A DNA stretch of 64,000 nt from Marinicella sp. (GCA_965230295.1 OZ246001.1:3008001-3072000), one strand, 5' to 3'. Positions 30,909-52,449 are shown, counted from the stretch's first letter. Notes: generated by a model not told the origin, from the sequence alone. Made by a program: numbers and translations.

Positions 30909-30935
30909 ATATCACCTCATAAATATTTTGTTAGT

Positions 30936-31124
30936 TCAAAATTCAATTGTTTCAAAGCCTTTTATTTCACTGAGTAATAAAATAGATCTAAATGAAGATT
31001 CAGAATCCACAATCAATAAGTGATACATTACTTTTTTTAATTTGCAAATCGCTTGATCGCCATTTTTGAGAAACAACCTGATGGTTGCACCTTTATAAAA
31101 TTGGTTTAATAGTTGGGTTCTCAT
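30936..31124 (-). CDS. Small Hfq/Sm-like fold protein (paralogue 1)
   Basis: LLNQF..ATIRLFLKNGDQAICKL..HLLIV..SILLLSEIKGF parallels Hfq FLNAL..VSIYLVNGIKLQGQI..FVILL..MVYKHAISTV. GAGG RBS. 43/60 identical to 52267..52449. Confidence 0.6.
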   Translation of the reverse strand: MRTQLLNQFYKGATIRLFLKNGDQAICKLKKVMYHLLIVDSESSFRSILLLSEIKGFETIEF

Positions 31125-31185
31125 GTCATACCTCTACTTGGTTATTAAAACATGATCCCAGTTTATGTAGAAAGATGAAATTTGC

Positions 31186-31213
31186 CCTGATCAGAATCAA
31201 ATTAATTTCTGTT
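31186..31213 (-). promoter_or_regulatory. 11-bp-period box
   Basis: CCTGAT 31186, TCTGTT 31208; TAAACT -10 at 31160-31165 (same layout as 52510). Confidence 0.6.
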
Positions 31214-31331
31214 TTTTTTATTAAAAAACTAAAAAAAATATGAAAAAAACATGAAAAACCACTAAATTCCAACGCTATGAACATAATGTCTAAATTTAAC
31301 GTGCAATTCAATCAACAAACTACAAATTGCT

Positions 31332-31460
31332 CATAGCTTTTCCTGAAGAATTGATACCACCTGAGTTTGTAATAGGTGTGCCAATAATCAGATCATCAAT
31401 AACATCACCATTGACATCACAGGCATGGCTAGCAAATCTACCAATATAGTCCTCTGCTTT
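31332..31460 (-). pseudogene. Isolated FG-GAP repeat remnant
   Basis: Translates as ..IGRFASHACDVNGDVIDDLIIGTPITNSGGINSSGKAM.. with no intact gene around it. Confidence 0.65.
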
Positions 31461-31949
31461 GTACCGATCTAATTTTGACAGATATATGATTGTGCTAAAT
31501 TAAACAAAAACTAATTGGTAACCTAAGGTTAAAGTCGCAAAACGACCTGTTTTTTTAATATTCATTTGTATTTTTTGGCGAATCACCTATCGATATTAAT
31601 TGTAGATAAGAGAATTTATTGTTTCCTTACTTAAATATCAGTTGAGCTTTAATTATGCTCAACACTGCAAAATATACATGATGAAATTATGATTTATTCC
31701 TGACATTACCTGTATTTCGTCAAAACCTTATGGGCCAATAACCGTTTGCTTTATAGTGTGCTTCATTATGTTTAAATTGGAGGGTGGCTACTGATACCTG
31801 TTTTCGGTGAACCACATACTAATTTAAGGAAAAATATAGTTATTAGACATAGAGCCTGATAACTTAGATTGTTTGGTTGTATATTTAAAAATCCAAAGAT
31901 TCAAGCATACGAATATGATCCCATTACGAAAGTCTTCGATTTTATCAAT

Positions 31950-31977
31950 ATCAGATAATAATCAGGGCAAAATAAGG
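31950..31977 (+). promoter_or_regulatory. 11-bp-period box followed by the conserved leader hairpin (32014-32060)
   Basis: ATCAGA 31950, ATCAGG 31961, ATAAGG 31972; TAATAT -10 at 31998-32003. Confidence 0.75.
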
Positions 31978-32113
31978 TTTTATATTGGTAGGGATCATAA
32001 TATTTCACCTAATGAAAACATGGGTGTTATTACGAATTCTGAATGATTCCTCATGTATTTCTTTAGTGCTGTTTATGCATACAGTTAATTAATATATCGT
32101 ATAGAGGTGAATA

Positions 32114-32620
32114 ATGTTAAAACTTTTTAAGAAAACCAAACCAGTCGAAATTCAAGAAAACCAAAAGGATTTTACTGCTCCAGGAACAAGCATCAAATTT
32201 TCTCCAAGTTTAATCAATAAACTTGAAGATGATCATAAAACGCTCTTAAGTATTTTTACTCAAATTCAAGACGCATACAAAGCGAGAAAATACAAATTGG
32301 TCCAAGTAAAACTTAAGCATTTTAAGATGAACTTGATGGATCATTTATTGGTTGAAAATTTGAAGCTTTATGTATATTTAAGTCATTGTTTGGTTAATGA
32401 CGATGTCAATTCTCAATTGGTCAGAGAGTTTCGTACTGAAATGGATGGGATTGCTAAAGCTGTAATGACGTTTGTAAAAAAATATGAAACCATCGGCGTT
32501 AATAAAGAATTGGCACATTATTTTGAAAGAGACTTAGAAAAAATAGGAATTGCATTGGTTGAAAGAATCATGAGAGAAGAGAAAACACTCTATCCGTTAT
32601 ACATTCCTGGTAATTACTGA
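32114..32620 (+). CDS. Hemerythrin-like (HHE) domain protein
   Basis: LEDDHKTLL, DHLLVENLKLYVYL, RIMREEKTLYPLY; RBS GAGGTGA. Confidence 0.8.
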   Translation: MLKLFKKTKPVEIQENQKDFTAPGTSIKFSPSLINKLEDDHKTLLSIFTQIQDAYKARKYKLVQVKLKHFKMNLMDHLLVENLKLYVYLSHCLVNDDVNSQLVREFRTEMDGIAKAVMTFVKKYETIGVNKELAHYFERDLEKIGIALVERIMREEKTLYPLYIPGNY

Positions 32621-32698
32621 TCCTTTATTTATGAAAATCAAGTAACAAGTGGTAGGTCTGTAGTAAAGAAGTGATTAATAAAATTTCAACAAGCAGGC

Positions 32699-33196
32699 TT
32701 ACCCCACTTTTTCCCTGTTGTTTAGTAATGCTATTAGTTGGTTTGCAAACTCTTCTCCTTTATCAATTTTAATTGACTCAAGTTCAAGAAACTTGTCATT
32801 ACCCAATTGTAATGTTAATCGATCTGCAAATTTTCCAGGTAAGAAAGTTACCCCATTAATATCAAGCAATCGGATTTGACCAATTATTCTTTTTGTCCTT
32901 CCAGTGAATGCAGACCTTGCCCATACTAATATTCTCTTGTTACATAATCCAAAAACCATTTGTTGAGCAAGCACAATTTGATTGCTGTCTTCTTTTGTTT
33001 GTTCACTTTTGAGGTTATCTGCTCCAATTAATAAACCTGAAAGATCATTAGTTTTTTTGTGTGTTGACAAACCAACCCGTAATGCTGGTTTTTTAAGGTT
33101 TACCCTTAGACCAATTAATAGTTCTTCATCTGTTAACAGGTATTCATCAATTAATCTATTTAGTTTAATAGTGATCTCATTCATTACAATTTTCAT
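32699..33196 (-). CDS. Hypothetical protein
   Basis: 165-aa ORF, protein-like alpha/beta pattern, no SD; start abuts the terminator of candidate sRNA B. Confidence 0.6.
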   Translation of the reverse strand: MKIVMNEITIKLNRLIDEYLLTDEELLIGLRVNLKKPALRVGLSTHKKTNDLSGLLIGADNLKSEQTKEDSNQIVLAQQMVFGLCNKRILVWARSAFTGRTKRIIGQIRLLDINGVTFLPGKFADRLTLQLGNDKFLELESIKIDKGEEFANQLIALLNNREKVG

Positions 33197-33202
33197 GAAA
33201 AG

Positions 33203-33298
33203 AGGAAAAGGCTCGTTAGGAAAACAACAAAGTTGAACTAGGGGGAACGAGCCTCTTCATTTTGAACTCACATTTAGTGTGTGATAATTGAGTTCATT
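33203..33298 (-). ncRNA. Candidate sRNA B or attenuating leader (two hairpins, UUCCCCC)
   Basis: Minus strand: TGAACTCA-loop-TGAGTTCA, then AGGCTCGTT-CCCCCTAG..TTCCT-AACGAGCCT-TTT. Confidence 0.55.
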
Positions 33299-33328
33299 TC
33301 CAACAATACTCTAATTATGAAGTTTTTC

Positions 33329-33356
33329 CCTTATATAAATCTGATGAATTTCTGAT
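33329..33356 (-). promoter_or_regulatory. 11-bp-period box embedded in a 19-bp-arm palindrome (33323-33372)
   Basis: CCTTAT 33329, TCTGAT 33340, TCTGAT 33351. Confidence 0.7.
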
Positions 33357-33741
33357 TTGTATAAGGGAAAAAATATTAAGTGAAACGTTCGAGTTTACCT
33401 AAGGTGCAGAAACTCAAAGGCATATAATTATTTATTTTGAAATTAAAGTTTTCTAATGAGTGCAATTTATAGAATTAAGTAAATAATACCTAAACTTAAC
33501 TCCAAATATTATCATTACTTAAAAGAGGCTAATATAAAAATGAATACTTAACATAAATAAAAGCAATTTAACCGATAAATATCTGCTATGGATCACTATA
33601 TTAATAATAATTTTTAATTAGAACCAACTTTGATTTTCATACCTGACGTTCCTAATATTATTCTGATTATTTAGTATATGATTATAGAAATTAACATTAT
33701 TAAGTGGCTAGATCGAAATCATTAATCTTTCAGTTTTAGTA

Positions 33742-34011
33742 TTACTGGTTGTTAATTTTAGAATTTATGTATTCAATCAATGCAGAAACTTTTAAGTTTG
33801 CTTCAGTCAGCATTATTTTCAATTGTTTATTTTCCTTGTCATAATCTAATTGGTTATTATGCTCATTATTTAGATGGTCTTTAAACTTATACTTCCATTT
33901 TAAAAATGTGCTTTGTGCAATGTCATTTTTCTGACATATGTCATATACAGATTTTCCATTTTGATTTAACTTTAACAATTTAATTCTGTCTTCATCAGTA
34001 AATCTTTTCAT
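33742..34011 (-). CDS. Stand-alone IS3 OrfA-like HTH/coiled-coil protein
   Basis: KRFTDEDRIKLL..GKSVYDICQK.DIAQSTFLKWK.K..ENKQLKIML resembles IS3 OrfA. No OrfB or terminal IRs seen. Confidence 0.7.
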   Translation of the reverse strand: MKRFTDEDRIKLLKLNQNGKSVYDICQKNDIAQSTFLKWKYKFKDHLNNEHNNQLDYDKENKQLKIMLTEANLKVSALIEYINSKINNQ

Positions 34012-34019
34012 AATGCAAA

Positions 34020-34232
34020 CTACCTTATAACATTTAGTTCAATTGGTTTGAAACCAATGGCTTTGAGTTTATTTATTGGTATGATTATTGATATGGTTGG
34101 GTAATTTAGAACTAAGGTTCCACCAGATACCCGAAATTTAACACTCTCTATCATTTCTCCCGATTTCAAATATGCAACCAAATGTTTATTGGAATCAGAT
34201 TTAAACATATTGAGTAAAACAGCACTCACCAT
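34020..34232 (-). CDS. Small Hfq/Sm-like fold protein (paralogue 2)
   Basis: LLNMF..HLVAYLKSGEMI..TLVL..IIIPINKLKAIG; Sm1/Sm2-like pattern. Confidence 0.5.
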   Translation of the reverse strand: MVSAVLLNMFKSDSNKHLVAYLKSGEMIESVKFRVSGGTLVLNYPTISIIIPINKLKAIGFKPIELNVIR

Positions 34233-34288
34233 TTACATTTCTTCTATATCTTGAGTCGCTTTATTATGAGAACATGGTATAAAAAAAA

Positions 34289-34316
34289 CCTGATCAAAAC
34301 CCAATATTAGCCGGAT
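34289..34316 (-). promoter_or_regulatory. 11-bp-period box
   Basis: CCTGAT 34289, CCCAAT 34300, CCGGAT 34311; CATAAT -10 at 34263-34268. Confidence 0.7.
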
Positions 34317-34352
34317 TATTTTCTATTCATGAAAATTACTTTTTTTAAAGTG

Positions 34353-34391
34353 ATCAGGAAATAATCAAAATTAAATCAAACATTAATCAGG
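34353..34391 (+). promoter_or_regulatory. 11-bp-period box (4 units), divergent from the 34289 box
   Basis: ATCAGG 34353, ATCAAA 34364, ATCAAA 34375, ATCAGG 34386; GAAAAT at 34412-34417. Confidence 0.7.
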
Positions 34392-34444
34392 TAAAAGAAA
34401 TGTACAAATATGAAAATTCAATTTTAAAAATAATATTTACGTCA

Positions 34445-34630
34445 ATGAGTAACTTAATTTTCAAATATGTAACAGGTAGAGATGGGGTTAAACTTTATTT
34501 GTCCAACGGTAGCGTCTTAAAATGCTACATCAGTAGTGTATCAAAACACTACATTTCTGTCAGTTCTTCATCTGGGAATTCTGATGTGATGTTGTCAAAC
34601 ATCAGTGCCATTGGTTTGGAGCCTAGATAA
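34445..34630 (+). CDS. Small Hfq/Sm-like fold protein (paralogue 3)
   Basis: DGVKLYLSNGSVLKCYISSVSKHYISV..SDVMLSNISAIG is the closest of the four to Hfq [35 protein letters not shown]. ATG 34445 chosen from promoter spacing. Confidence 0.6.
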   Translation: MSNLIFKYVTGRDGVKLYLSNGSVLKCYISSVSKHYISVSSSSGNSDVMLSNISAIGLEPR

Positions 34631-34733
34631 ATATATATTTACACTTTTGGGCCCTCTATTCAATTTTGATCAGCTATTTACCCTAGTGAGGGCTCAGGGG
34701 TGTTTTTAAAGATTTTTTTACAGGTCATAAATA

Positions 34734-34793
34734 ATCAGAGTTTAGTCAGAAAAGACACAGCATTAAATCATGATTTGATCAGGCTTAATCAGA
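34734..34793 (+). promoter_or_regulatory. Extended 11-bp-period box
   Basis: ATCAGA 34734, GTCAGA 34745, CACAGC 34756, ATCATG 34767, ATCAGG 34778; TAGACT -10 at 34804-34809. Confidence 0.7.
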
Positions 34794-34847
34794 CTGAACA
34801 TCATAGACTGGAATTAAATTATATACACAATAAATTAGAGGTGAATT

Positions 34848-35531
34848 ATGAATACCAGGTCTAAATCAGATAATTATGCAGATATGCAATTAGAGTTTTA
34901 CCATCAACCTATTGTTGACGAAATAGGATCCAAACATGATTGGGTTGAGCTACTGGCCCGACCCAAAGTTAATCAGATGCCTATAGGGTTAGATGTGTTC
35001 TTTGGTGCCATGTCTGACAATGAGAAAGTTGATTTTGATATCATGGTTATTAATCGACTTCCACATGTCCAAAAAGAAACTCAATACAAAAGAATCAGTG
35101 TTAATATTTCTCCCTTGAGCATAACAGATCCTTTTTTTATTGAAGTCATTAATCGGCACTTCAACAATCGAACCATAGATTTTTCACGTATTTGTCTAGA
35201 GATTGTAGAAACTGATAAGTTACAAAAGTTAAACAAAAAGAGTATTCAACTGATCAAGCAACTTCGAAAATCAGGTGCTTGGATTGCCCTAGATGATTTT
35301 GGTACATGACACGCCCACTGGGAGCTTTTGCACCATGATTTAGTGGATGTGATTAAAGTAGTTAATGTAAATGTAAATAAATCTGTCAGTTCAATTGATT
35401 TGATTGCATCATTTTCATCATTTGCTCAATCAAATGGTTTTATAACCGTCTTAGAAGGGATTGAAACTGACCAGGATTTAAATCAGGGTATAGAGCAGGG
35501 GTTTAACCATTTTCAAGGCCATTTATTTTGA
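34848..35531 (+). pseudogene. EAL-domain protein interrupted by an in-frame TGA
   Basis: HQPIVD, ELLAR, ISVNISP, LEIVE, ALDDFGT*(35307-35309)HAHW..DVIK..VLEGIET..FQGHLF, all in one frame. Confidence 0.85.
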
Positions 35532-36524: not shown

Positions 36525-36628
36525 TGAAAAGGCTCGGATGGGTAACGAGGGTGAAAAAGGGGGGAACCACCCGAGCCAGTCCAAAATTGAACCCATAAGT
36601 AGAGAGAGAAAAAACTTATTGGGAACAT
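36525..36628 (-). ncRNA. Candidate sRNA C (two hairpins, CU-rich and UUCCCCCC loops, terminator)
   Basis: Minus strand: CCCA-ATAAGT-TTTTTCTCTCTCT-ACTTAT-GGG, then GGCTCGGGTGG-TTCCCCCCTTTTTCACCCTCGTTAC-CCATCCGAGCC-TTTT. Has its own box and CATAAT promoter. Confidence 0.65.
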
Positions 36629-36659
36629 GATGTATTATGTTGAAGCAGCAAATAATATT

Positions 36660-36687: not shown

Positions 36688-36695
36688 TTAATTAT

Positions 36696-37103: not shown

Positions 37104-37110
37104 TTAATTC

Positions 37111-37807: not shown

Positions 37808-39448
37808 TTATTGAGTGGATATCAACCCATCAAAACTGTTTTCAAATATTGATTTGATGATGCGAATATTTTTGTCAAACATATTATCCGCAGGATAACC
37901 GTCTACAAGTCCAATTTCTGGAGTAACACTGCCTGAAACGTTGTTCTCATCGCCATCATCGGCCGAAGTTTCGAAATATATGGTGTAAGTCACAACTTCG
38001 CCTGGACCCATCGATGAAATGGTGTCAGTGACATCTCCAGATCCTCCGCCAACTCCTAAACATAAAGGACCGGCATCACAACTCCAAAGTATGTTAGAAG
38101 CAGTGGTGTCTAACATGATTTGAACTTCAATGTTATTTGAAAAGGCAAATCCTGAATTTTGTACCAACACCGTAAGCTGCGCATCATTTCCATCAATTAC
38201 TTGATTACTTGGTAAATGAATTGAAACATCTGGAATACCACAATTCAATCCTCCATGTGTGACAGTCCATCCATATTGATTAATTAAAGTGCTTAGCCCC
38301 GAACCTTGGCAATAAGGTGTGGAAGCAGCACTGAAATTTACATTGTTCATCACATTTTGAGTAGCAAAGTTATTCAGCAAGCTGTCAAAGTTCCTGGTTG
38401 ATAGCCCGGAATTATTGAACATACCAGTCATGTCTTCTACTAAAGGTATTTGCCAACTTGCAAGGTCTGGATTGGCATTTGCTGCCCCATTAAACATGTA
38501 TATCATAGTAGTTACAGATGATACATTCCAATTGCTGACATCAGGGTTGGCAATACCAGCGTTATTAAACATGTAAAACATAACATTTACAGATGACACA
38601 TCCCAATTGCTGACATCGGGGTTGGCAATACTAGCATTATTAAACATGTAGGCCAAATTGGTTACAGATGATACGTCCCAATTGCTGACATCTGGATCAG
38701 CTATAGGAGTACTGTTAAACATATAAGTCATACTGGTCACAGATGACACGTCCCAATTACTTACATCAGGATTGGCAACAACAGCACCTGCAAACATACT
38801 GCTCATATTAGATACTGATGACACATCCCAATCACTCACATTTGGATTGGCAACCATTGCGTTGTTGAACATGGATCTCATATCAGTAACAGATGACACA
38901 TCCCAACTGCTCACATCGGGGTTGGCAACGGCTGCGCCAGCAAACATATGCGACATATTTTTTACAGCTGACACGTCCCACCCACTTACATCGAGGTTAT
39001 TGATTGCACTGTCAGCAAACATATGTGACATATCAGTGACTTGAGATAGATCCGGCACATCTGTGGCAATAAAATCTGTGTTTACCCCACTAAAGGCGCT
39101 ATTCATTGACTTCCATTCAATAGCGCCCCATTGATTTACGCTGGTCAACTGTTCGTTTTGAGCGGCGGCTGAATCAATAAGGTATGTGCTGGGGTAATCG
39201 CCAATGATTCTGATGGTGTGTGTGCCTGCACTTGGAAATGTATACTGAAAAGGTCCTGTTATTCCAGTGAAGTCATACACGCCATCATCATCAATATCCA
39301 CGTCATAATTGTATTGACCTGAATAGTTTGGATCTATGGGTAAATCGATGGTTGGGTATGGAATTGTATTCCATGTGGTGATGAATTCAGCTTGTGCTGA
39401 AGACATCATCCATACAGAAAACATCAGGGATAGGATGGTATATTTCAT
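37808..39448 (-). CDS. DUF285/BspA-like surface repeat protein with DUF11-like C-domain
   Basis: FITTW, QWGAIEWKSM, many PDVSNWDVSSVTNM..MF 25-aa repeats; start MKYT (ATG 39448); tail SIFENSFD. Confidence 0.9.
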   Translation of the reverse strand: MKYTILSLMFSVWMMSSAQAEFITTWNTIPYPTIDLPIDPNYSGQYNYDVDIDDDGVYDFTGITGPFQYTFPSAGTHTIRIIGDYPSTYLIDSAAAQNEQLTSVNQWGAIEWKSMNSAFSGVNTDFIATDVPDLSQVTDMSHMFADSAINNLDVSGWDVSAVKNMSHMFAGAAVANPDVSSWDVSSVTDMRSMFNNAMVANPNVSDWDVSSVSNMSSMFAGAVVANPDVSNWDVSSVTSMTYMFNSTPIADPDVSNWDVSSVTNLAYMFNNASIANPDVSNWDVSSVNVMFYMFNNAGIANPDVSNWNVSSVTTMIYMFNGAANANPDLASWQIPLVEDMTGMFNNSGLSTRNFDSLLNNFATQNVMNNVNFSAASTPYCQGSGLSTLINQYGWTVTHGGLNCGIPDVSIHLPSNQVIDGNDAQLTVLVQNSGFAFSNNIEVQIMLDTTASNILWSCDAGPLCLGVGGGSGDVTDTISSMGPGEVVTYTIYFETSADDGDENNVSGSVTPEIGLVDGYPADNMFDKNIRIIKSIFENSFDGLISTQ

Positions 39449-39502
39449 GGCTTTACCTTCTGTATTAATGGACTTAATTATGGAATCAGTCACAAAAATA
39501 AA

Positions 39503-39530
39503 ACTGATTGAACCCTTATTTTTTGCTGAT
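39503..39530 (-). promoter_or_regulatory. 11-bp-period box
   Basis: ACTGAT 39503, CCTTAT 39514, GCTGAT 39525; CATAAT 39477-39482. Confidence 0.75.
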
Positions 39531-39547
39531 TTTTTATTGGGTGTGGT

Positions 39548-40942: not shown

Positions 40943-40997
40943 GGAATTCTACCTCTGAATTAAGAGATTTAATTATGGAACCAGTCACAAAAGAATT

Positions 40998-41025
40998 ACT
41001 GATCGAATCCTTATGTTTGACTGAT
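40998..41025 (-). promoter_or_regulatory. 11-bp-period box
   Basis: ACTGAT 40998, CCTTAT 41009, ACTGAT 41020; CATAAT 40972-40977. Confidence 0.75.
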
Positions 41026-41027
41026 TT

Positions 41028-42572: not shown

Positions 42573-42624
42573 GGCTTTACCTTCTGTATTAATAGATAAT
42601 TATGGAATCAGTCACAAAAGAATT

Positions 42625-42652
42625 ACTGACCGAATCCTTATGTTTGACTGAT
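42625..42652 (-). promoter_or_regulatory. 11-bp-period box
   Basis: ACTGAC 42625, CCTTAT 42636, ACTGAT 42647; CATAAT 42599-42604. Confidence 0.75.
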
Positions 42653-42654
42653 TT

Positions 42655-44136: not shown

Positions 44137-44189
44137 TGAATTAACCTGTGGGAAAAAAACTTGATTATGGGTTCGGTCATGAAAAAATA

Positions 44190-44217
44190 ACTGATCGAAT
44201 CCTTATCTTTAGCTGAT
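44190..44217 (-). promoter_or_regulatory. 11-bp-period box
   Basis: ACTGAT 44190, CCTTAT 44201, GCTGAT 44212; CATAAT 44164-44169. Confidence 0.75.
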
Positions 44218-44457
44218 TTATTATTTAGTCATATGGCCAAGTCATATAAATGCCTGAAAGAATATGGTCCGCCTGACTGCCTTGGCATACGATTTCTGCA
44301 ACTGGACTACAAACCCGGGCATAGAAAATCCGTATCAGGGTCTGAATAATATAGCTGACAAAGGTTTTTCAAGAATAGACGTTCCATTCACACAACAATT
44401 CTTAGACCGTTCAAATTTAAAAGCATATTCAAGACTGAGCTTTTCCTTTTCTTTTAT

Positions 44458-47136
44458 TTATTCAAAATCACTTTTAAACAATGCCATGATGATCGGAATA
44501 TTTTTGTTGAACGTGTTATTTGCTTGAAAACCATCATCAATGCTTGGTTGTGTTGATACACTGCCTGAAATATCCAGTTCATCGCCATCATTACTCACAA
44601 TGTCGAAATTCACTGCGTATGTCACAACTGAATCTGGGGGCATAGCCGAAATAGTGTCATATACAGTTCCAGATGTTCCGTTACATGACAAACCGGCATG
44701 GTCACATGTCCAAAAGATGTTAGATGTATTGCTGTTGTCTAATGTGACTTCGACAGCAACATTATTTACATACTGATTTCCTGAGTTCTTTACCCATATG
44801 ATCAACTGCGGATTATTTCCATCAAGAACTTGACCACTTGGTAAGTCAATTGATACATCTGTAATAAAACAATCCAAGCCGCCGTCAGCGATTGTCCACC
44901 CTTTGTCATTGATTAAGATTTCTCTGGCAAAACCTGCTGTACAATAAGGTGTATTGCTGGCACTGAAGTTAATGTTGTGCACAACATCTTGACCTGCAAA
45001 GTTCACCAGCAAGCTGTCATAGTTATTTGTTGATAGCCCAGAATAGGCAAGCATATTTTCCATGTCATTTACATTTTCAATTTCCCAGCTTCCAACTTCA
45101 GGATTAAACAAAGTGGCGTTTAAGAACATACGAGACATATCAGTCACAGATGAGACGTCCCATCTACTCAAATCGGAATTGGCAAAAGTAGCGTTACTGA
45201 ACATGTTTTTCATATCGATTACGGATGAAACATTCCAACTGCTCAGATCGAGATTGGCGGCAACTGCTCCATCAAACATGTAACTCATATCGGTTACATT
45301 TGACACATCCCAACCACTCAAGTCAGGTTCAGCACCTCTTGCTTCACTAAACATGTTACCCATATCAGTTACTTTCGTTACATCCCAATCACCCAAATTG
45401 GGGTTGGCAATACGTGTTTGGCTAAACATGCTGTTCATGTTGTTAACTGATGACACATCCCAAGTGCGCAGTTCTGGGCTGGCATCATCGGCACCCCAAA
45501 ACATGCCGGCCATGTTGGTTACATTTGACACATCCCACCCATCAACAACTGGATTGCCAATGGCGTTCCAAAACATATAGCTCATATTGTTTATTGATGA
45601 CATGTCCCAATTGCTCAAAACTGCGAGGTTTCCGACATTACTATTAGCAAACATATATGAAGCATCAGTTACTCGAGTTAGATCAGGCACATCTGAGGTT
45701 GAGAGGTCTGTTGTTATTCCAAAAAAAGCGCGATTCATTGACTTCCACTCGATATCGCCCCATTGATCTACGCTGATCAACTGGCCATTTAATGCGGCGT
45801 TTGAACCAAAAAAATATGGGTTAGGGTATTTCTCACCGTTTATCCTGATGGTGTAAATGCCTGGGTTTGGAACTGTATACAAAAAAGCCCCATTTATTCC
45901 AGTGTAGTCACCCACAATGTTATTATTATTATCTAGGATTTGTATGTTAAAGTTATAATCACTTGAATAGTTCGGGTCAACCCCTAAATCAATACTTAAG
46001 TTGGTGGTTGTGTCCCAAGTCGTGACGAAATCTTTACCTGTAACACGTGTTTTTGATAATCTCAAATTGTCGAAGTTGACTTGAGGACCAGAGCCTGTGG
46101 CTGTAGGAGATAGTGAGTTCAAGCGAATAGATAATGGTTGTCCAATGTGTGTTGGCTGAGCTGTATAAGAAATACTTACTGAATTAAACCTTCCATCTGG
46201 CACAGGTTCATTACTTATACTTGCTAATACTTCACCATTTGACTCTAATGCAATGCTGTAATCAGAAAAATCAACATTTAATCGATTCCCAACATCGACT
46301 ATTAAACAATATGTAGAACCTTCCTCAATAATTTCGCTGGTAGCTTGAATTAATGAGTTTGGACCAAGATTGATATAAGCGACATTTGAACCTTCTGGAA
46401 CAGGATCAATAAAGTCAGTATTTCTGGGGTTATAAGTCCCTTTGCCCAAATTCGGAAACTCGACCCAACCAGGTACATTACTGTTCCAACTACCATCATT
46501 AACTGAAACCTCTTCAAAACCTGGGTTCTGTAAAATGATGCCTTGTATTTTCGACAATCTCACATTATCAAAGTTGACTTGAGGTCCAGAGCCTGTGATA
46601 GAAGGTGAGAGTGAATCCAGGCGAATAGATAATGGTTGTCCAATGTGTGTTGGCTGAGCTGTATAAGAAATACTTACTGAAATAAACCTTCCATCTGGCA
46701 CAGGTTCATTACTTAAACTTGCTAACACTTCACCATTTGACTCTAATGCAATGATGTAATCAGAAAAATCAACATTTAATCGATTTCCTACATCTATAGT
46801 TAAACTATAAGTCGCCCCTTCCTCGATAGTTTCACCCGTTGTTTGTAGCAGAGAGTTTGGACCAATATTGATATAAGCAACATTAGAGCCCTCTGGAACA
46901 GGATCAAGGAAATCAGCATTTGTCGGATTATAAGTACCTTTGCCTAAATTTGTAGACTCGATCCAACCAGGTGCATTACTGTTCCAACTACCATCATTAA
47001 CTGAAACCTCTTCAAAACCAGGATTCTGCAAAATGATGTTTTCTGCACTTGTTTCATGACAGATATTTTGTGCATTCGTTTTACTGCACAAAAGCAAAGT
47101 GAGCAAAAGAGTTTGTATTAAAGCAATCGTTCTCAT
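44458..47136 (-). CDS. DUF285/BspA-like protein with two N-terminal carbohydrate-binding-like jelly-roll domains
   Basis: Duplicated IILQNPGFEE..QVNFDNVRL units, then FVTTW and WDVS repeats; tail ALFKSDFE. Confidence 0.88.
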   Translation of the reverse strand: MRTIALIQTLLLTLLLCSKTNAQNICHETSAENIILQNPGFEEVSVNDGSWNSNAPGWIESTNLGKGTYNPTNADFLDPVPEGSNVAYINIGPNSLLQTTGETIEEGATYSLTIDVGNRLNVDFSDYIIALESNGEVLASLSNEPVPDGRFISVSISYTAQPTHIGQPLSIRLDSLSPSITGSGPQVNFDNVRLSKIQGIILQNPGFEEVSVNDGSWNSNVPGWVEFPNLGKGTYNPRNTDFIDPVPEGSNVAYINLGPNSLIQATSEIIEEGSTYCLIVDVGNRLNVDFSDYSIALESNGEVLASISNEPVPDGRFNSVSISYTAQPTHIGQPLSIRLNSLSPTATGSGPQVNFDNLRLSKTRVTGKDFVTTWDTTTNLSIDLGVDPNYSSDYNFNIQILDNNNNIVGDYTGINGAFLYTVPNPGIYTIRINGEKYPNPYFFGSNAALNGQLISVDQWGDIEWKSMNRAFFGITTDLSTSDVPDLTRVTDASYMFANSNVGNLAVLSNWDMSSINNMSYMFWNAIGNPVVDGWDVSNVTNMAGMFWGADDASPELRTWDVSSVNNMNSMFSQTRIANPNLGDWDVTKVTDMGNMFSEARGAEPDLSGWDVSNVTDMSYMFDGAVAANLDLSSWNVSSVIDMKNMFSNATFANSDLSRWDVSSVTDMSRMFLNATLFNPEVGSWEIENVNDMENMLAYSGLSTNNYDSLLVNFAGQDVVHNINFSASNTPYCTAGFAREILINDKGWTIADGGLDCFITDVSIDLPSGQVLDGNNPQLIIWVKNSGNQYVNNVAVEVTLDNSNTSNIFWTCDHAGLSCNGTSGTVYDTISAMPPDSVVTYAVNFDIVSNDGDELDISGSVSTQPSIDDGFQANNTFNKNIPIIMALFKSDFE

Positions 47137-47190
47137 TGGGATATTCCTAAATTTAGCAATTATTATTTTCTATAGTTCCCTGGATTAATA

Positions 47191-47228
47191 ACTGATCAAA
47201 AACTGATTTAGTGATGATTTTTTCTGAT
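47191..47228 (-). promoter_or_regulatory. 11-bp-period box
   Basis: ACTGAT 47191, ACTGAT 47202, GATGAT 47213, TCTGAT 47223. Confidence 0.7.
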
Positions 47229-47340
47229 TAATTTATCTCTGTAATTTATTCAAAATCACTTTTTTGTATTGATTTGATGTTTGAATGCTTCTATCAAACA
47301 TATTTGTCGAAGGTTTCCCTTTAATTAGATACAGAATTAA

Positions 47341-47368
47341 ATCAGGTAAAAACAAGGGTTTAATCAGG
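47341..47368 (+). promoter_or_regulatory. 11-bp-period box driving candidate sRNA D
   Basis: ATCAGG 47341, ACAAGG 47352, ATCAGG 47363; GATAAT -10 at 47389-47394. Confidence 0.75.
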
Positions 47369-47400
47369 ACATTATCCTGATGTTTCTCGATAATGACCGT

Positions 47401-47540
47401 TAAGGAGCAATGCTTTGGTACACACACTCTCTCTATTGCGTCGCTCTTTATTTGTTCCGCAAGGGTGTCGAGGCTTTTACATTCACCCCCTTATGTACCT
47501 CGTCACTCTTGTGACTCTATCCATACGAGCATTTATTTTT
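47401..47540 (+). ncRNA. Candidate sRNA D (CU-rich first loop, UCACCCCCUU apical loop)
   Basis: GCAAT..ACACACACTCTCTCT-ATTGC; long stem GCAAGGGTG/CACTCTTGT, CGAGG/CCTCG, TACAT/ATGTA with loop TCACCCCCTT; U-rich end. Confidence 0.55.
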
Positions 47541-48879
47541 AGACAAACCCTTATCTTGCTTTGTACCCCAACAGGACATGCCATTACTTTGTTAAAAGAA
47601 TTTTCAAAACCATATACAGGGTGTTGTCATTAGTTGTTAATTATTTCTGTTATTTTCTTCATATCTGGCCATTTGAATTAAAGGGTTCAATTTAATTTTG
47701 TTATTTGTTTTGAATACTGTAAAGGTTGTTAGTAGCCCAGTGAGAAATGGTACTTTTCTACATCGTAGGCTATCACAATGGATTAATTTCTTGGCTGTAT
47801 CAGTTAAGTCTCTTTAACAATGCTGATTCATTACGGCCGTTCTGAATTTGCCATTAAAGCTGTTATTAAATGTGATTTATGTTGGAGTGCCAGGTTGAAT
47901 AAATGGTTATCTAACACTCTGTTATATAACCCTGAAGAACATAGCTTCGTAAGTATATTCAGTCCTGTAGAAAAATTCGATTGTATTTGGGCCTGTTTCT
48001 TGGTATTCAATCTCTAGATCAAGGGAGCGTTCAGCCACAGCGCTATTAATCAATGAGGCCAAAAATTTGCCAAAATAATTGTGGGGGCAAGTGATTAACT
48101 AGACTTAACACTTCGAAGTGCCTTCAACCTGATTCTATATTTGAAATAAAACCTATTGCCTTCCCTTTGATGACTAAGCTCATTGGGTGTTTTCAACTTC
48201 TCTTTTAGTAAAATGTTAACCTGCATCTTTTCCTCCATGTACATGCAGTACATTTACCTTGCATTATCAATCAAGATTTTTATGCATTGCATGCTACAGC
48301 AAATCCGAATGATGCTCTGTTTCATTTTAGGAGAAAATATACTTTGCCATGGTTAAGTTCTTTGGTGGAAAGGACATTCCCTCTTCAAGGAATTTGTTTA
48401 TGGGTAATCTTGGATGTCCTATTAATAAGCATCTTAGAGAGGTTGTTAACCGTTCAGTTAACGATTGCACTAAGTGAACATTGGAATAAAGCTAATTTAG
48501 AATGATTTAATGTGCTGAAGTTAATTTTGAATTAATGACTAGATTAATTTTTTACATAGGTAAAATTTGTCTGATGAATCCTTTTCAAGTAGCTTTTCTG
48601 CAAGTGTATCTAATTGGTTTTTCTGAAAGATTGTTTCTTAACACAACGAAAATAAAGTCCATTATAAATGAAGTTTTTCTAAGCACATTAATGGTATCAA
48701 GACCCTTGAAGTCTTTTTCAATACTTTGGTACCTCAAGGGTCTTACATAGAATCTAAAATTTTCCATTGCTTATTTTGAAAAGTTCTGATTAGATTTTTC
48801 AACATTAAAAATCAAGTTACTTACATTTATTTAGATTAATTGTTAAAAAATAATACAAGATATTTTTTAACAAACAAGC

Positions 48880-50160
48880 TCATTCATCAAAACCGTTTTT
48901 AAATATTACAGATTCTGCATAATTGACAGTTATAAGTCTATCAATTACATTGTCAGCAGGAAAATTCTCAGAAGCTATTGTGGCATTGCCAGTAACTAAA
49001 ATATAATGATCATTACTACTGGAACCCGAAAAGTCGAAATTCACGTTGTACGTCACAACTGAGCCCCCATTGAGTGTTGGTATGTAAGATATAATCGCGT
49101 CAGTGCCTGAACCACATGAAACACCATCATTATCACATGTCCAAGTAATATTAGAAACTTCGGCTGAGGCTATAAAAAAACTTACATCAATGCCATCTAA
49201 TATAGGTATAATCCCAGAAGAGTTTCTTACAATAACCGTCAGATTAGGATCGTTAGCATCAATAGAATCTACACCAGTTGGTAAATAAATTGAAACATCT
49301 CGTGCAACACAATTACTACCATCATCAATGATCGACCAACCCTTATTAGTAATTAAATCATCTCTTGGGACGGAAGCGCAGTGTGGAGTATCTCCTGCAT
49401 TCAAGTTAACGTTTTGCATTACGTCTTGTTCTGAAAAGCTATGCAACATTTGGCTGTAGTTAAGCCTTGATAGACCGGAAGTAGGGTAGAACATTTCACC
49501 CATTGTGGTTACATTTGTCACATCCCAATTTTCGATATTAGGGTTGGCATCCGTTGCATTACCAAATAGATAACTCATATTAGTAACTTGAGATGTATTC
49601 CAGAGATCTACTATTGGATTGAAACCGTGTGAACTTACAAACATACCCTCTAATGTGATTGCAGCAGATGTATCCAAATGAGTCAATTCAAGATACGGTA
49701 ATGTAGAGTAAGCAAACGCATACTCGAAACTTGATACTTGAGAGGTATTAGGCACATCTGTGGCAGAAAAAAATGTACCATTTAAGATCGAAAATGCATT
49801 TTCCCATGATTTCCATTCAATATCTCCCCACTGTTTTAATTCGGTAAATTTGTTATGCGCACCTGGGGAGTTGCCCATGTTGGGGTTTGCAAATGCACCA
49901 TAGATTTTGACTTCATAAGTACCCGGATTTTGATAAATGTGGTTAACGTCCCCGGTTTGATTTAGAAGTTCTGGGGTTCCGTCACCGAAATCTATTCTGT
50001 AGTTGTATTCGGATAGATGATTTTGATCTCTAGGAATCACAAGATTCAAATCAGATGGATCTACAGTCCATTCGAATATGAAAGGCTCTGCCTGTGCATG
50101 TGCAGAAGTTGTCATGAGAATTGAAAATAAAATAAAAATCGTAAAGTATATAAGTTTCAT
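48880..50160 (-). CDS. DUF285/BspA-like surface protein with PKD-like N-domain
   Basis: IDFGDG..HIYQNPGTYEVKI, QWGDIEWKS, WNTSQVTNM repeats; tail VIFKNGFDE. Confidence 0.9.
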   Translation of the reverse strand: MKLIYFTIFILFSILMTTSAHAQAEPFIFEWTVDPSDLNLVIPRDQNHLSEYNYRIDFGDGTPELLNQTGDVNHIYQNPGTYEVKIYGAFANPNMGNSPGAHNKFTELKQWGDIEWKSWENAFSILNGTFFSATDVPNTSQVSSFEYAFAYSTLPYLELTHLDTSAAITLEGMFVSSHGFNPIVDLWNTSQVTNMSYLFGNATDANPNIENWDVTNVTTMGEMFYPTSGLSRLNYSQMLHSFSEQDVMQNVNLNAGDTPHCASVPRDDLITNKGWSIIDDGSNCVARDVSIYLPTGVDSIDANDPNLTVIVRNSSGIIPILDGIDVSFFIASAEVSNITWTCDNDGVSCGSGTDAIISYIPTLNGGSVVTYNVNFDFSGSSSNDHYILVTGNATIASENFPADNVIDRLITVNYAESVIFKNGFDE

Positions 50161-50212
50161 AATGTTACTACCTAGTAAAAAAAATTATTATGGGTGGTGT
50201 GTGAATAAATAA

Positions 50213-50240
50213 ACTGACTCAAACCTGATTTTTTACTGAT
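50213..50240 (-). promoter_or_regulatory. 11-bp-period box
   Basis: ACTGAC 50213, CCTGAT 50224, ACTGAT 50235; CATAAT 50187-50192. Confidence 0.75.
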
Positions 50241-50255
50241 GATTGATTCAACGTT

Positions 50256-52217
50256 TTATTCAAAGCCGTTTTGGAATATAAGTTCATAAGTAACAGGAAT
50301 GTTCTTGTTAAACATGTTGTCAGCAGGATAACCATCAGCACCTGTAAGCATTGAGACGCTACCCAAAATATTCACTTCTTCGCTTTCAGCTGCCGATGTG
50401 TCAAAATGGATGGTAAAAGTTGTCCCTGTATCAGGCGGCATGTTCATAAGCGAATATGAAATCTCACCAGATGTTCCACCAACTCCAACACATGCAGGGT
50501 CGAAATCACATGTCCAGGAAATATTTGATGTATTGATAGGGTCTAGTGTAATGAGAACTTCTATGTCCTCTGTTTGGTAGCCTGAATTTTCAACATATAC
50601 GATCAACTCAGGAGCATATCCATTCAGAGTTTGAATGTTTTGTAACACAGCTCTGGCATCAGGAGTATAGCAACCAATCGGACCTGCATCGATGATGGTC
50701 CATCCTTTTAGATTGATTAAATCGTCTCGTGCAGAACTCGACTCGCAGTAAGGTGTACCATCAGCATTGAAAGTGACATTACTCATTACATTTTGTGAAG
50801 CGAGGTTAGACAGCCAGCGGTCATAGTTTCTTGTTGAAAACCCTGGTATCAATGACGTGTCGAAGTAACCAAACATGTTAGTCATGTCACTGACATTTTG
50901 CACATCCCAGAACTGAAGGTCCGGGTTAGCTTTTGGAGTGTGTAAAAACATGTGGAACATGTCAGTCACATTAGAAACGTCCCAATTGGTCACATCAGGA
51001 TTGGCTTCGTCAGCTCCAGCAAACATGGCATTCATAGTGGTGACTGATGATGTATCCCAATTTTCAACTTCGGGATCGGCAACATTCGCGTCAATGAACA
51101 TTCTACTCATATCGACCACATTGGAAGTATCCCATTTTGATACGTTGGGGTTAGCAATTTCAGCACTTGCAAACATAACACTCGTGGTGGTGACAGATGA
51201 TGTATCCCAATTTTCAACATCAGGGTTGGCGCAACAAGTTCCACTGAACATGCCGCCAATGGATTCTACATTTGAAATATCCCATCCACTGACATCTGGA
51301 TCGGCATCAGAAAGACTGAACATTGAAGACATGTTAGTTACATTTGATACAACCCAACTACTCACATTCGGAGTGAAATTGACCCCAAAAAACATACCTG
51401 ACATGTCGGTTATGTTTGAAACATCCCAACTTCCTACATCATAAGTGCCAGTGGAGTAATAAAACATGCTCGACATATTTGTTACACTTGACAAATTCCA
51501 GTCTCCTACATCTGCTTCTCCAGATGCGCCAGCAAACATAAAGCTCATATTTTCAACACTACTTGTAATCCAATCGCCAGTATCAGGTACAAATGACTGA
51601 ACCCCATCGTCATTAATTCCTCCTGTTTCTCTGAATGTACCGCGCATATTTGTTACATTACTAACGTCCCATGAACCAAAGCCCCGAATATTGCCAGCTG
51701 CTTTCCAGAAAGCATGATCCAAATTTCTTGCAGATGACATGTCCCAATCACTTAGATCGACATCAACTTCACAATTTCCACACATATATGTAAAGTCAGT
51801 TACTTGAGATAGGTCAGGTGGGTTTTGTAGTGCAAATGTAATGCCTTTCGCTTCTCTGAAAGCGGATTTCATAGACAACCAGGGCATGTCCATTTCAAGT
51901 ATGCGGATTATTTGGCGGTTCCGAGCAGAGCGAGAGCCAAATAGATAAGGATTTGGAAAATTTCCAGTGATCCTAACAGTATAGATTCTAGGGCTAAAAT
52001 ATGTGTACTGAACATTTCCAGTTTGCCCAGTGAGTTCAGGATTACCATCATTATCGAGATCTACATTAAAATTGTATGGAAGGCTAGGATCAGTCCTTAT
52101 ATCGAGAGTTAATCCGTCGGGTAATTGGTCATTCGCTTCGAATTCAAAGACGAAATCAGCATTTGCCGAGAACGATACAAGAATAAGAAATAAAATGGAA
52201 GAAATTGTATATTTCAT
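50256..52217 (-). CDS. DUF285/BspA-like surface repeat protein
   Basis: About 12 WDxSxVxxMxxMF repeats; RBS GAGGTGA; tail LIFQNGFE. Confidence 0.9.
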   Translation of the reverse strand: MKYTISSILFLILVSFSANADFVFEFEANDQLPDGLTLDIRTDPSLPYNFNVDLDNDGNPELTGQTGNVQYTYFSPRIYTVRITGNFPNPYLFGSRSARNRQIIRILEMDMPWLSMKSAFREAKGITFALQNPPDLSQVTDFTYMCGNCEVDVDLSDWDMSSARNLDHAFWKAAGNIRGFGSWDVSNVTNMRGTFRETGGINDDGVQSFVPDTGDWITSSVENMSFMFAGASGEADVGDWNLSSVTNMSSMFYYSTGTYDVGSWDVSNITDMSGMFFGVNFTPNVSSWVVSNVTNMSSMFSLSDADPDVSGWDISNVESIGGMFSGTCCANPDVENWDTSSVTTTSVMFASAEIANPNVSKWDTSNVVDMSRMFIDANVADPEVENWDTSSVTTMNAMFAGADEANPDVTNWDVSNVTDMFHMFLHTPKANPDLQFWDVQNVSDMTNMFGYFDTSLIPGFSTRNYDRWLSNLASQNVMSNVTFNADGTPYCESSSARDDLINLKGWTIIDAGPIGCYTPDARAVLQNIQTLNGYAPELIVYVENSGYQTEDIEVLITLDPINTSNISWTCDFDPACVGVGGTSGEISYSLMNMPPDTGTTFTIHFDTSAAESEEVNILGSVSMLTGADGYPADNMFNKNIPVTYELIFQNGFE

Positions 52218-52266
52218 GGTTCACCTCGTTTTACTTAATTTAAAGTTCATTGATAATGAAATGCTT

Positions 52267-52449
52267 TTAAAGAGATTCAAAACATTTGATTTCACTGAGT
52301 AATAGGATTGACCGAAGAGAAGACTCAGAGTCGACAATCACAAAATAATGCATGACATTTTTGAGGGTGCAAATGGCCTGATCACCATTTTTTAAGAAGA
52401 TTCTGATGTTGGCATTGTGTTTAAATTGTTCTAGTAATTGATTTCTCAT
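52267..52449 (-). CDS. Small Hfq/Sm-like fold protein (paralogue 4)
   Basis: 43/60 identical to 30936..31124; IRIFLKNG motif; first gene of a probable operon with the DUF285 gene. Confidence 0.6.
   Translation of the reverse strand: MRNQLLEQFKHNANIRIFLKNGDQAICTLKNVMHYFVIVDSESSLRSILLLSEIKCFESL

Follow-up and report, generated by a model that had tools for sequence, protein, structure and literature searches.

The window (the whole stretch of DNA analysed, 64,000 nucleotides) carries four small genes, g1 to g4, on a low-GC island of about 60 kb with genes for secreted repeat proteins (FG-GAP, Big_13, CarboxypepD_reg, DUF285). The four genes, their close neighbours and the two sides of a duplication are the following.

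30711-30908, minus strand: very acidic ORF of 65 aa with its own GAGG, 27 nt downstream of g1; pI 4.05, 18 D+E
30936-31124, minus strand: g1, a predicted Sm-fold mini-protein of 62 aa, pI 9.3
30942-31249, minus strand: g1 side of the g1/g4 duplication, found by local alignment, covering the gene and a leader of about 125 nt
33742-34011, minus strand: HTH_Tnp_1 ORF of 89 aa, its start 8 nt from the g2 stop
34020-34232, minus strand: g2, a divergent member of 70 aa, pI 9.9
34445-34630, plus strand: g3, a divergent member of 61 aa, pI 9.3
50256-52217, minus strand: DUF285 surface-protein gene of 653 aa, with g4 lying 49 nt upstream
52267-52449, minus strand: g4, a paralogue of g1 with 60 aa, pI 7.8
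52267-52573: g4 side of the duplication, counterpart of 30942-31249

The original prediction placed one short ORF at each of these four positions, and all four are present there. The sequence marks it described can be read in each product: the strand-end motif appears as FLKNG in g1 and g4, YLKSG in g2 and YLSNG in g3, and the C-terminal motif as IKGF, IKCF, LKAIGF or ISAIGL. A Shine-Dalgarno-like AGAGG precedes the g1 ATG at 7 nt. g2 and g3 are divergently oriented across a 212-bp spacer, and an alternative upstream ATG at 34400 would lengthen g3 to 76 aa. g1 and g4 share 72% amino acid identity with a dN/dS of 0.096, at a dS of about 2.0, which is saturated; this pair is under strong purifying selection. 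All four ORFs are real genes, because the dN/dS between g1 and g4 is about 0.10 and because the family is also found in two other genomes and among metagenomic proteins (three homologues). No signal peptide is apparent in g1 to g4, the sequences being judged by eye.

The acidic ORF downstream of g1 has no family match and is a possible operon partner of g1. The HTH_Tnp_1 ORF next to g2 has no transposase catalytic ORF beside it. A Trans_reg_C-TPR gene lies at 10107-12401, and a leader of roughly 130 nt is common to the genes at 12788, 19560 and 32114. Rfam returned nothing at gathering score over the whole window, and no tRNA genes were found in the search. A GyrB fragment from this genome matches named genomes at no more than 70% identity, with Lysobacterales, Kangiellaceae and further gammaproteobacteria in the top rows; searches for AMO and for DotI/IcmL, both without a positive control, found neither. 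Outside this genome, one homologue (in G062) is flanked by an ECF sigma factor, a kinase-TPR protein and FG-GAP_2 proteins, and another (in G006) adjoins a Trans_reg_C/PD40 regulator. The genomic context of the family recurs.

The four ORFs resemble one another beyond chance, and significant profile comparisons connect them. A profile built on g1 and g4 together with three outside homologues matches g3 (hhalign E 1.8e-5, probability 78). g2 is weakly linked both to the profile of g1, g4 and outside homologues (E 0.023) and to g3 (E 0.044), and a fragment from a congeneric genome bridges it, with E values of 3e-7 to g2 and 6e-5 to g3. The family has exactly four copies in the genome. Across the eight members, G22 is invariant (8/8), and the invariant set comprises K20, N21, G22, C27, V32, M33, V39, D40, S41, S47 and L49.

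Homologues elsewhere are very few: three among 1.84 billion representative proteins, and members in two of the 43 other genomes of the host's taxonomic family (G006 and G062). A word-indexed homologue search with g1 recovered g1 and g4 alone. The same kind of search with alignment A3 recovered three of the window's own four genes (g2 absent) together with P0005, P0006 and P0009, and nothing else. Pattern scans matched 25 stretches in genome contigs and 240 in metagenome contigs, none of which was confirmed as a homologue. A tblastn search against plasmids and phages gave no match, and PHROGs and PADLOC assigned no family to any of g1 to g4. Several long proteins matched in the representative search (P0004, P0007, P0008 and P0010-P0014, each matched over 2-11 stretches) were considered as fused forms of the family and rejected because they are unrelated repeat proteins (SdrD_B, Big_2, SRCR, zinc fingers); the Pfam scan covered seven of these eight proteins, P0012 being left out. 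No convincing fused form was found among the 1.84 billion representatives in a search without length limit. No published description of the family was found, going by titles and abstract openings. g1 to g4 belong to a nearly orphan, lineage-restricted family, not previously filed, with about eight known sequences.

The AlphaFold2 model of g1 has a pLDDT of 85.8 and a pTM of 0.70, with a helix at residues 2-10 and strands at 14-19, 24-33, 36-41, 48-50 and 54-60; the g2 model has a pLDDT of 80.0. The input alignments were small (4 and 8 sequences). Both models show an N-terminal helix followed by a five-stranded, strongly bent sheet, which is the Sm layout. The Sm-like fold proposed from sequence, which a model of another shape would have contradicted, is thus upheld at the level of prediction, and so is its comparison with solved structures: among the PDB matches listed by Foldseek, Hfq accounts for 28 of 31 for g1 (TM 0.70-0.77, the remaining three being Sm/LSm/Gemin) and for 28 of 30 for g2. 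The family is predicted to fold like Hfq.

Sm-like proteins with a different mode of action, the Rho inhibitor Rof/YaeO and WYL sensor domains, have the fold at similar scores. VIA Z scores to Hfq are 8.0-8.5 for g1 and 7.3-7.4 for g2, a range that VIA itself rates as middling, and both models score highest against a small barrel designed de novo (Z 9.0 and 7.8). Rof/YaeO (the Vibrio cholerae YaeO structure, 6jie) is matched at Z 7.8 by g1, within about 1 of Hfq, and at 6.1 by g2. WYL domains are matched at 7.0-8.2 by g1, again within about 1 of Hfq, and at 5.1-6.0 by g2. The spore-coat assembly proteins CgeA and GerQ follow at 6.2-7.2.

Sequence profiles point in the same direction, faintly. 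At E<=10, the A5 profile matches eight PDB entries and the A4 profile twelve, all of them Sm-fold proteins save a single designed small barrel per profile, each with an E of at least 0.004; the best A5 match is the Hfq-like protein of M. jannaschii (E 0.004). Other weak PDB profile matches include one Tudor protein and are otherwise of the Sm superfamily. The A5 and A4 matches align over an Sm1-type region, namely the hydrophobic strand 1, the glycine of the turn between strands 1 and 2, and the hydrophobic strands 2 and 3, so that the Sm1-type pattern of the Sm/LSm superfamily is present. The nearest ESM Atlas clusters are DUF6897 and Hfq_1/Hfq (0.88-0.91). Scores with the curated Hfq models lie below their thresholds: g4, the sole scorer among the eight members with Pfam Hfq (PF17209), reaches 13.4 bits (E 0.059) against a cut-off of 27, its locus scores 11.9 bits in a genome search with the same model, and g3 alone scores with TIGR02383, at 14.1 bits (E 0.032) against 61.7. 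Against a 30-sequence Hfq alignment, the family gives hhalign E values of 0.002-0.015 at a probability of 3-13%, covering the helix and strands 1 and 2 only. A homology claim from hhalign to this alignment or to the genome's own Hfq (probability 2.5-13%) was rejected as too weak by itself. The canonical hfq lies elsewhere in the genome, in one copy (G000:C1:1836363-1836548). g1 to g4 stand outside the Hfq sequence family; they are Hfq-like in predicted structure and faintly so in sequence.

The residues on which RNA-chaperone action by Hfq depends were compared in an end-to-end MAFFT alignment of the eight family members with six Hfq sequences. In g1, Hfq Q8 is replaced by R2 and Y55-K56-H57 by L49-L50-L51, and the other seven members are also non-basic there. 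The position of Hfq D40 holds M, and the arginine rim is largely gone. Q8 and the Sm2 Y/F-K-H motif make up the proximal-face RNA site of E. coli Hfq, and the family lacks this site. The alignment also bears out the earlier observation that YKH(A) and a C-terminal tail are absent.

A common motif, YAGRWAWTAAT, stands in front of each of g1 to g4.

31201-31211, minus strand: YAGRWAWTAAT, 76 nt upstream of g1, CAGAAATTAAT
34315-34325, minus strand: YAGRWAWTAAT, 82 nt upstream of g2, TAGAAAATAAT
34355-34365, plus strand: YAGRWAWTAAT, 79 nt upstream of the 34445 start of g3, CAGGAAATAAT
52525-52535, minus strand: YAGRWAWTAAT, 75 nt upstream of g4, CAGATATTAAT

Each gene had been credited with a regulon promoter of its own. 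What holds of this is the shared motif, 75-82 nt upstream of each start (for g3 counted from 34445), as a putative promoter element; sigma-70 consensus sites, sought over 30600-34900 (the stretch with g1, g2 and g3), were fewer than in shuffles and absent before those three genes. The window has 12 copies of the motif where 1.19 would be expected, an excess to be read with the fact that it was defined partly from g1 to g4 themselves and that the surrounding DNA is AT-rich. Genome-wide there are 58 copies, 12 of them in the window. A direct repeat, ATCAG-N6-ATCAG, occurs 45 times genome-wide; the window has 11 of these, most of them preceding surface-protein genes. YAGRWAWTAAT is a weak, degenerate form of this direct repeat, which is concentrated in the low-GC island.

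The reading we favour, somewhat short of an even chance, is that g1 to g4 are lineage-restricted Sm-fold proteins, co-expressed with the island, that act as small nucleic-acid-binding regulators of its transcripts. A degenerate copy of the direct-repeat motif sits at a fixed distance before each gene, the motif preceding many island genes as well, and g1 to g4 would be switched on together with the island. The Sm-fold proteins are probably oligomeric and may bind nucleic acid, most likely RNA, thereby regulating island transcripts. The binding surface would differ from the proximal uridine pocket of Hfq, which the family has lost.

Loss of the RNA-contact residues of Hfq also suits a different role, in which the proteins, as Rof/YaeO-like monomers or dimers, would attach to a protein of the host, for example Rho, the termination factor, or the host's own Hfq, and not to RNA. 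Such docking would relieve premature termination or silencing of long AT-rich island genes. Rof offers the precedent, an Sm-like protein described as inhibiting termination through direct binding to Rho (PMC11018626). The structural score to YaeO is near that to Hfq for g1, g4 lies directly upstream of the 653-aa DUF285 gene, and ROF matches in the genome stay under the Pfam cut-off, the highest (21.3 bits) being at another locus. However, no family member, g1 to g4 included, matches Pfam ROF (PF07073) at E<=10, and several weak sequence signals favour Hfq and Sm, with none favouring Rof; on balance, docking of this kind is rather unlikely. True Hfq paralogues, as the original prediction had it, assembling into homo- or hetero-hexamers (perhaps with host Hfq in the same ring) and serving as specialised sRNA chaperones or dominant-negative modulators, would explain why Hfq is the commonest structural match, why an end-to-end alignment is possible and why the NG turn and the aromatic at the Y25 position are kept in five of the eight members, including all of g1 to g4; the canonical Hfq of the genome is available as a partner. 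This is nevertheless a very doubtful account, since every curated threshold was failed, a weak Pfam match is confined to one of the eight members and the proximal pocket and rim are unconserved. This analysis also identified no C-rich sRNA partner.

The other small barrels raise two further possibilities. As stand-alone WYL-like barrels, the proteins would sense a ligand and pair with a separate DNA-binding protein, for example g2 with the 89-aa HTH ORF that starts 8 nt from its stop. The WYL domains of PafBC, BrxR, CapW and DriD match g1 over all 62 residues at Z scores close to those of Hfq, but in the matched entries WYL is part of a fused HTH-WYL-WCX protein about 200-640 aa long, whereas the family consists of free proteins of 60-70 aa. 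The HTH neighbour occurs at g2 only, the WYL scores of g2 drop below its Hfq scores and PADLOC is without matches, all of which makes WYL-like sensing highly improbable. A non-regulatory role is unlikely on other grounds. Here the proteins would help to assemble or chaperone the island's secreted repeat proteins, and the likeness to Hfq would reflect a common barrel architecture. A designed small barrel tops the VIA list for both models, CgeA and GerQ are among the VIA matches, and surface-protein genes adjoin family genes in three genomes. Against this, g1 to g4 show no apparent signal peptide (by eye), and the N-terminal helix, the strongly bent sheet and the Sm1 sequence echoes point specifically to Sm.

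A wider and more speculative scheme can also be drawn up, which we consider improbable as a whole. A ToxR/OmpR-type regulator, acting via ATCAG-N6-ATCAG, would induce the giant surface-protein genes along with the four Sm-fold proteins, and these would serve as anti-silencing or anti-termination factors (Rof-like or RNA-binding) for long AT-rich foreign genes. The RNA pocket of Hfq would have been traded for a new surface. If true, Sm proteins would gain a new functional class, one linked to a genomic island, and the island would have its own layer of post-initiation control.

Sm/Hfq proteins are central RNA regulators. In this genome, four divergent, predicted Sm-fold genes tied to an island of secreted repeat proteins are maintained alongside a normal hfq. 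Like bacterial Hfq, the family has a predicted helix and five-strand Sm barrel of the length of the Hfq core, and it aligns with Hfq with few or no gaps; common to both are the LLN helix, a hydrophobic strand 1, the N-G turn and the aromatic at the Y25 position. Unlike Hfq, it has no C-terminal tail and lacks Q8, D40, K56, H57 and most rim arginines; its invariant residues mostly differ from the aligned Hfq residues, with the exception of the N-G turn, and its four island copies exist besides the canonical hfq.

The archaeal Hfq-like protein MJ1435 of Methanocaldococcus jannaschii (2qtx, 5dy9), a minimal Sm protein of 71 aa, is the best PDB profile match (E 0.004-0.005, strands 1-4) and has VIA Z scores of 7.5 for g1 and 6.7 for g2. 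It comes from another domain of life, the E value is marginal and the shared signature that was seen is that of the Sm1 region. WYL domains (PafBC, BrxR, CapW, DriD) share the Sm-like barrel across the full length of g1; the family differs from WYL regulators in being a free-standing single domain with neither HTH nor WCX, and so it does not have their fused architecture. Known bacterial departures from Hfq (Rof, WYL domains) have each uncovered a new mechanism. Binding of RNA by g1 to g4 via a new surface, or binding of Rho or Hfq by them, would widen the range of functions known for the Sm fold and would provide a handle on the expression of horizontally acquired AT-rich surface-protein islands. 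The immediate reach is modest, because about eight sequences are known and the host is an environmental gammaproteobacterium. Rof/YaeO (PF07073; 6jie) is likewise a small stand-alone Sm-like protein, and one that has swapped RNA-chaperone chemistry for protein binding (PMC11018626); g1 to g4 differ from it in having no ROF HMM match at E<=10, and a genome-wide ROF search misses all four loci.

The original prediction placed four small ORFs in the window, and all four are present:

30936-31124, minus strand: g1, 62 aa
34020-34232, minus strand: g2, 70 aa
34445-34630, plus strand: g3, 61 aa (76 aa if the ATG at 34400 is used)
52267-52449, minus strand: g4, 60 aa

In all four, a short N-terminal segment is followed by FLKNG, YLKSG or YLSNG, and the C-terminus has an I/L-x-[AGC]-[IF] stretch. 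g1 and g4 are 72% identical in both protein and DNA; with dN at 0.19 and a saturated dS of about 2.0, their dN/dS of about 0.10 indicates strong purifying selection on the protein. Their duplication comprises the gene and about 125 nt upstream (31249-30942 vs 52573-52267). The A4 profile, made from g1, g4 and three outside homologues and leaving g3 out, matches g3 in hhalign at E 1.8e-5 (probability 78). g2 is weakly linked, at E 0.023 to the A4 profile and E 0.044 to g3. A 57-residue contig-end fragment from a congeneric genome (L008, in G006) matches g2 (E 3e-7) and g3 (E 6e-5); because it bridges the two, the four genes are treated as a single family in which g1/g4 and g2/g3 form two subtypes.

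The family is very small. The window's own genome (G000; 4.0 Mb, one contig) carries exactly four copies. At E<=0.001, a full HMMER read of 1.84 billion representative proteins gave 13. They comprise g4 and g3 themselves, three true short homologues (P0005, 61 aa; P0006, 67 aa; P0009, 73 aa) and eight long proteins, each matched in 2-11 stretches. g2 is not among the 13, and the library may lack it. Fused forms were considered for the long proteins and rejected, as the seven of the eight scanned in Pfam are unrelated repeat proteins. A word-indexed search of 5.8 billion proteins returned the same three outsiders. Of the 43 further genomes in this GTDB family, two have a match (G006 and G062). 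Three of 60 sampled relatives, including other families of the same order, matched: G006 (E 5.9e-7), G017 (E 0.006, with three internal stop codons) and G030 (E 0.08). Pattern scans of genome and metagenome contigs confirmed no family member, and tblastn found no match in plasmid and phage collections. Separately, P0014, an unrelated metagenomic protein of 296 aa, has two tandem '…IYLKNGE…GxITQY…IP…EIN.I…' modules, which match the mini-protein profile at E 8.7e-4 and Pfam Hfq weakly (E 5e-4, 20 bits); they may be a case of Sm-like barrels serving as the repeat units of a secreted protein.

The sequence relation to Hfq and Sm proteins is distant. Pfam Hfq matches g4 only, one of eight family members (13.4 bits, E 0.059), and TIGR02383 matches g3 only (14.1 bits vs a 61.7 cut-off). 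In hhalign, comparison with this genome's Hfq or with an alignment of 30 Hfq sequences yields E 0.002-0.019 and probability 2.5-13%, the overlap being limited to the helix and strands 1-2. Among PDB sequences at E<=10, a second family profile (A5) matches Sm-type proteins in 8 of 8 cases: an M. jannaschii Hfq-like protein (E 0.004), an LSm-domain chain, a designed barrel, B. subtilis and S. aureus Hfq, and SmD1. All 12 matches of A4 are likewise Sm-type, as are two of the three of A1, the remaining one being a Tudor protein. In the ESM Atlas the nearest clusters are of DUF6897 (19 among the best 30 named clusters, scores from 0.9), with Hfq_1/Hfq clusters at 0.87-0.88. These Hfq/Sm signals are weak but mutually consistent.

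Predicted structures point to the same fold. The AlphaFold2 model of g1 (4-sequence alignment) has a mean pLDDT of 85.8 and pTM 0.70, with a helix at 2-10 and strands at 14-19, 24-33, 36-41, 48-50 and 54-60; the g2 model (8-sequence alignment; pLDDT 80.0, pTM 0.63) has the same element order. Both models are very short, and Foldseek against the PDB gives no match at E<=0.001 (best 4e-3 and 1e-2). Among the matches listed for g1, Hfq accounts for 28 of 31 (TM 0.70-0.77; Listeria, Bacillus, Staphylococcus, E. coli, Pseudomonas and others) and Sm/LSm/Gemin chains for the remaining three; for g2, Hfq accounts for 28 of 30 listed. The ranking of these models is one-sided toward Hfq despite E above 0.001. 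BFVD matches are uncharacterised small phage proteins only (E>=6e-3).

A VIA structure search of 48,161 chains, independent of Foldseek, matched g1 to a designed small barrel (Z 9.0), Hfq (Z 8.0-8.5), WYL domains of PafBC, BrxR, CapW and DriD (Z 7.0-8.2), YaeO/Rof (Z 7.8) and many LSm/SmAP chains (Z 6-7.7), and matched g2 to the designed barrel (Z 7.8), Hfq (Z 7.3-7.4), the M. jannaschii Hfq-like protein (Z 6.7), YaeO (Z 6.1) and DriD (Z 6.0); best values of Z 7-8 are common in this search, and these scores alone are no proof of kinship. The structural assignment is solid for a prediction.

The genes lie in a low-GC island. GC stands at 0.33-0.41 over a stretch that begins about 4 kb ahead of the window and runs to about 56,000, vs 0.44-0.46 in the flanks, and its minimum (0.29-0.32, at 30-36 kb) is the location of g1-g3. 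The Big_13, FG-GAP, CarboxypepD_reg and DUF285 genes of the island encode secreted repeat proteins. Main island features are:

5989-7761: Big_13 gene
8023-9522: FG-GAP gene
10107-12401, plus strand: Trans_reg_C-TPR regulator gene
14943-16577: FG-GAP gene
17022-18614: FG-GAP gene
23429-29843: CarboxypepD_reg gene
33742-34011, minus strand: HTH_Tnp_1 ORF, 89 aa, start 8 nt from the g2 stop
37808-52217, minus strand: array of six consecutive DUF285 (BspA-like) secreted proteins, 426-892 aa

One DUF285 protein has two HpiC1-like domains and one a PKD domain; a DUF285 gene begins 49 nt downstream of g4. An acidic 65-aa ORF (pI 4.05) lies 27 nt after g1, and g2 and g3 are divergently oriented. In G062 the homologue's neighbours are an ECF sigma factor, a kinase-TPR protein and large FG-GAP_2 proteins; in G006 it adjoins a Trans_reg_C/PD40 regulator. 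The recurring neighbours in the three genomes examined are regulators and secreted repeat proteins.

Other observations concern the surroundings of g1-g3. The proteins encoded on either side of g1, at 30102-30572 (minus) and 32114-32620 (plus), are distant relatives (21% identity, E 5e-5) with hemerythrin-like and Rsd/AlgQ-like matches (Rsd/AlgQ 34 bits vs a cut-off of 35), and could be sigma-factor or redox regulators. Upstream of g1, at about 31340-31460 (minus), the end of an open frame resembles by eye an FG-GAP repeat remnant (…DVNGDVIDDLIIGTP…). No transposase catalytic gene adjoins the HTH_Tnp_1 ORF, which matches the 88-position PADLOC model DrmC (E 7e-12); this is probably generic HTH similarity, since no other defence component was seen among g4 and the ten ORFs scanned at 30-37 kb. 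The EAL-domain gene downstream of g3 is split (34848-35309 and 35328-35531, plus strand; profile positions 11-156 and 182-233), and is probably a disrupted c-di-GMP phosphodiesterase gene.

A common upstream motif links the genes to the island. YAGRWAWTAAT occurs 12 times in the window vs 1.19 expected, and 0 of 100 shuffles reached 12; as four of the copies served to define the pattern, 8 count as an independent excess. The whole genome has 58 copies, 12 of them in the window (1.6% of the genome). The distance from the motif's end to the gene start is 76 nt for g1, 75 nt for g4, 82 nt for g2 and 79 nt for g3, and the g3 spacing, which matches the others when counted from 34445, favours that start. 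In its stronger form the motif is a direct repeat, ATCAG-N6-ATCAG. The genome has 45 copies of this repeat, 11 of them in the window (5892, 7845, 12617, 18807, 19399, 31950, 33356, 36687, 47207, 50240 and 54783). For most, a surface-protein or island gene follows 70-200 nt downstream; by position, copies precede the Big_13 gene, one FG-GAP gene, two DUF285 genes, an ankyrin gene, a 165-aa ORF and three genes with a common leader. At the four mini-genes the second half-sites are degenerate (ATTTG, ATCCG, ATCCG and ATCAA). An 11-bp direct repeat is a typical target of winged-helix OmpR/ToxR-type regulators, and the Trans_reg_C-TPR regulator may use ATCAG-N6-ATCAG as its operator. A scan of 30600-34900 found no sigma-70-like promoter before g1-g3.

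The common leader is a conserved element of about 130 nt, on the plus strand at 12560-12800, 19342-19580 and 31893-32125 (mean column identity 74%). It begins ATCAGATAATAATCAGG-N6-TAAGGT, has a possible CATGRG...CYCATG hairpin inside, and has no Rfam match. Two of the three genes behind it are mutually unrelated. Two encode paralogues of 333 and 335 aa (12788-13789 and 19560-20567, plus strand; 65% identity) that match no Pfam family.

The real genes, predicted Sm fold, lost Hfq proximal and rim residues, common island motif and recurrent neighbours together suggest a role: the mini-proteins would be made together with the island surface proteins and would regulate island expression after initiation. 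On the reading given most weight, they may be small oligomeric nucleic-acid binders, probably of RNA, acting via a non-Hfq surface. This reading draws on the basic character of three of the four proteins and on the family-invariant residues, which include KNG and VDS loops. These loops align with Hfq loops that are taken to lie on the distal side.

Other roles carry less weight. A Rof-like, protein-binding role is unlikely, though it keeps some weight: YaeO/Rof is among the VIA matches, and the genome has no ROF match above cut-off. Rof, itself Sm-like, is known to bind Rho and to block termination (PMC11018626; see also PMC11018607). A barrel with no regulatory function is somewhat less probable again. 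True Hfq paralogues or hetero-rings are improbable: the fold ranking leans to Hfq, but the Hfq functional residues are changed. A WYL-like sensor, for which the PafBC, BrxR, CapW and DriD matches speak, is the least credible of these.

Hfq itself is present in this genome as a single canonical copy (C1:1836363-1836548, 105.4 bits). A weak Hfq-like stretch lies elsewhere (G000:C1:1460680-1460763; 13.7 bits, E 0.19, with an in-frame TGA). Eight family members and six Hfq cores align end to end with few gaps (MAFFT L-INS-i). As in Hfq, there is an LLN helix, a hydrophobic strand 1 and an N-G turn (G22 invariant), and the Y25 position is aromatic in five of eight members (g1-g4 and the G006 fragment). 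In contrast, Q8 is changed to R, D40 to M and Q41/F42 to [HYN][HY], and only scattered basic residues stand for the arginine rim; we take these positions and Y55-K56-H57 to be functional residues of Hfq (proximal site and rim). The YKHA motif had correctly been called absent, Y55-K56-H57 being replaced by L-L-L or similar. The proposed likeness to Hfq/Sm thus holds for the predicted Sm fold, but not for Hfq membership, since no family member reaches the curated Hfq thresholds. No description of the family turned up in the literature searched, and no family library searched files it. Bacteria are already known to have extra Hfq copies and non-canonical Sm-like proteins; PMC7074383, for example, deals with Burkholderia RNA-binding proteins. 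The mini-proteins are rated, beside these, as a new sequence family within the Sm fold, in an unusual four-copy, island-linked arrangement.
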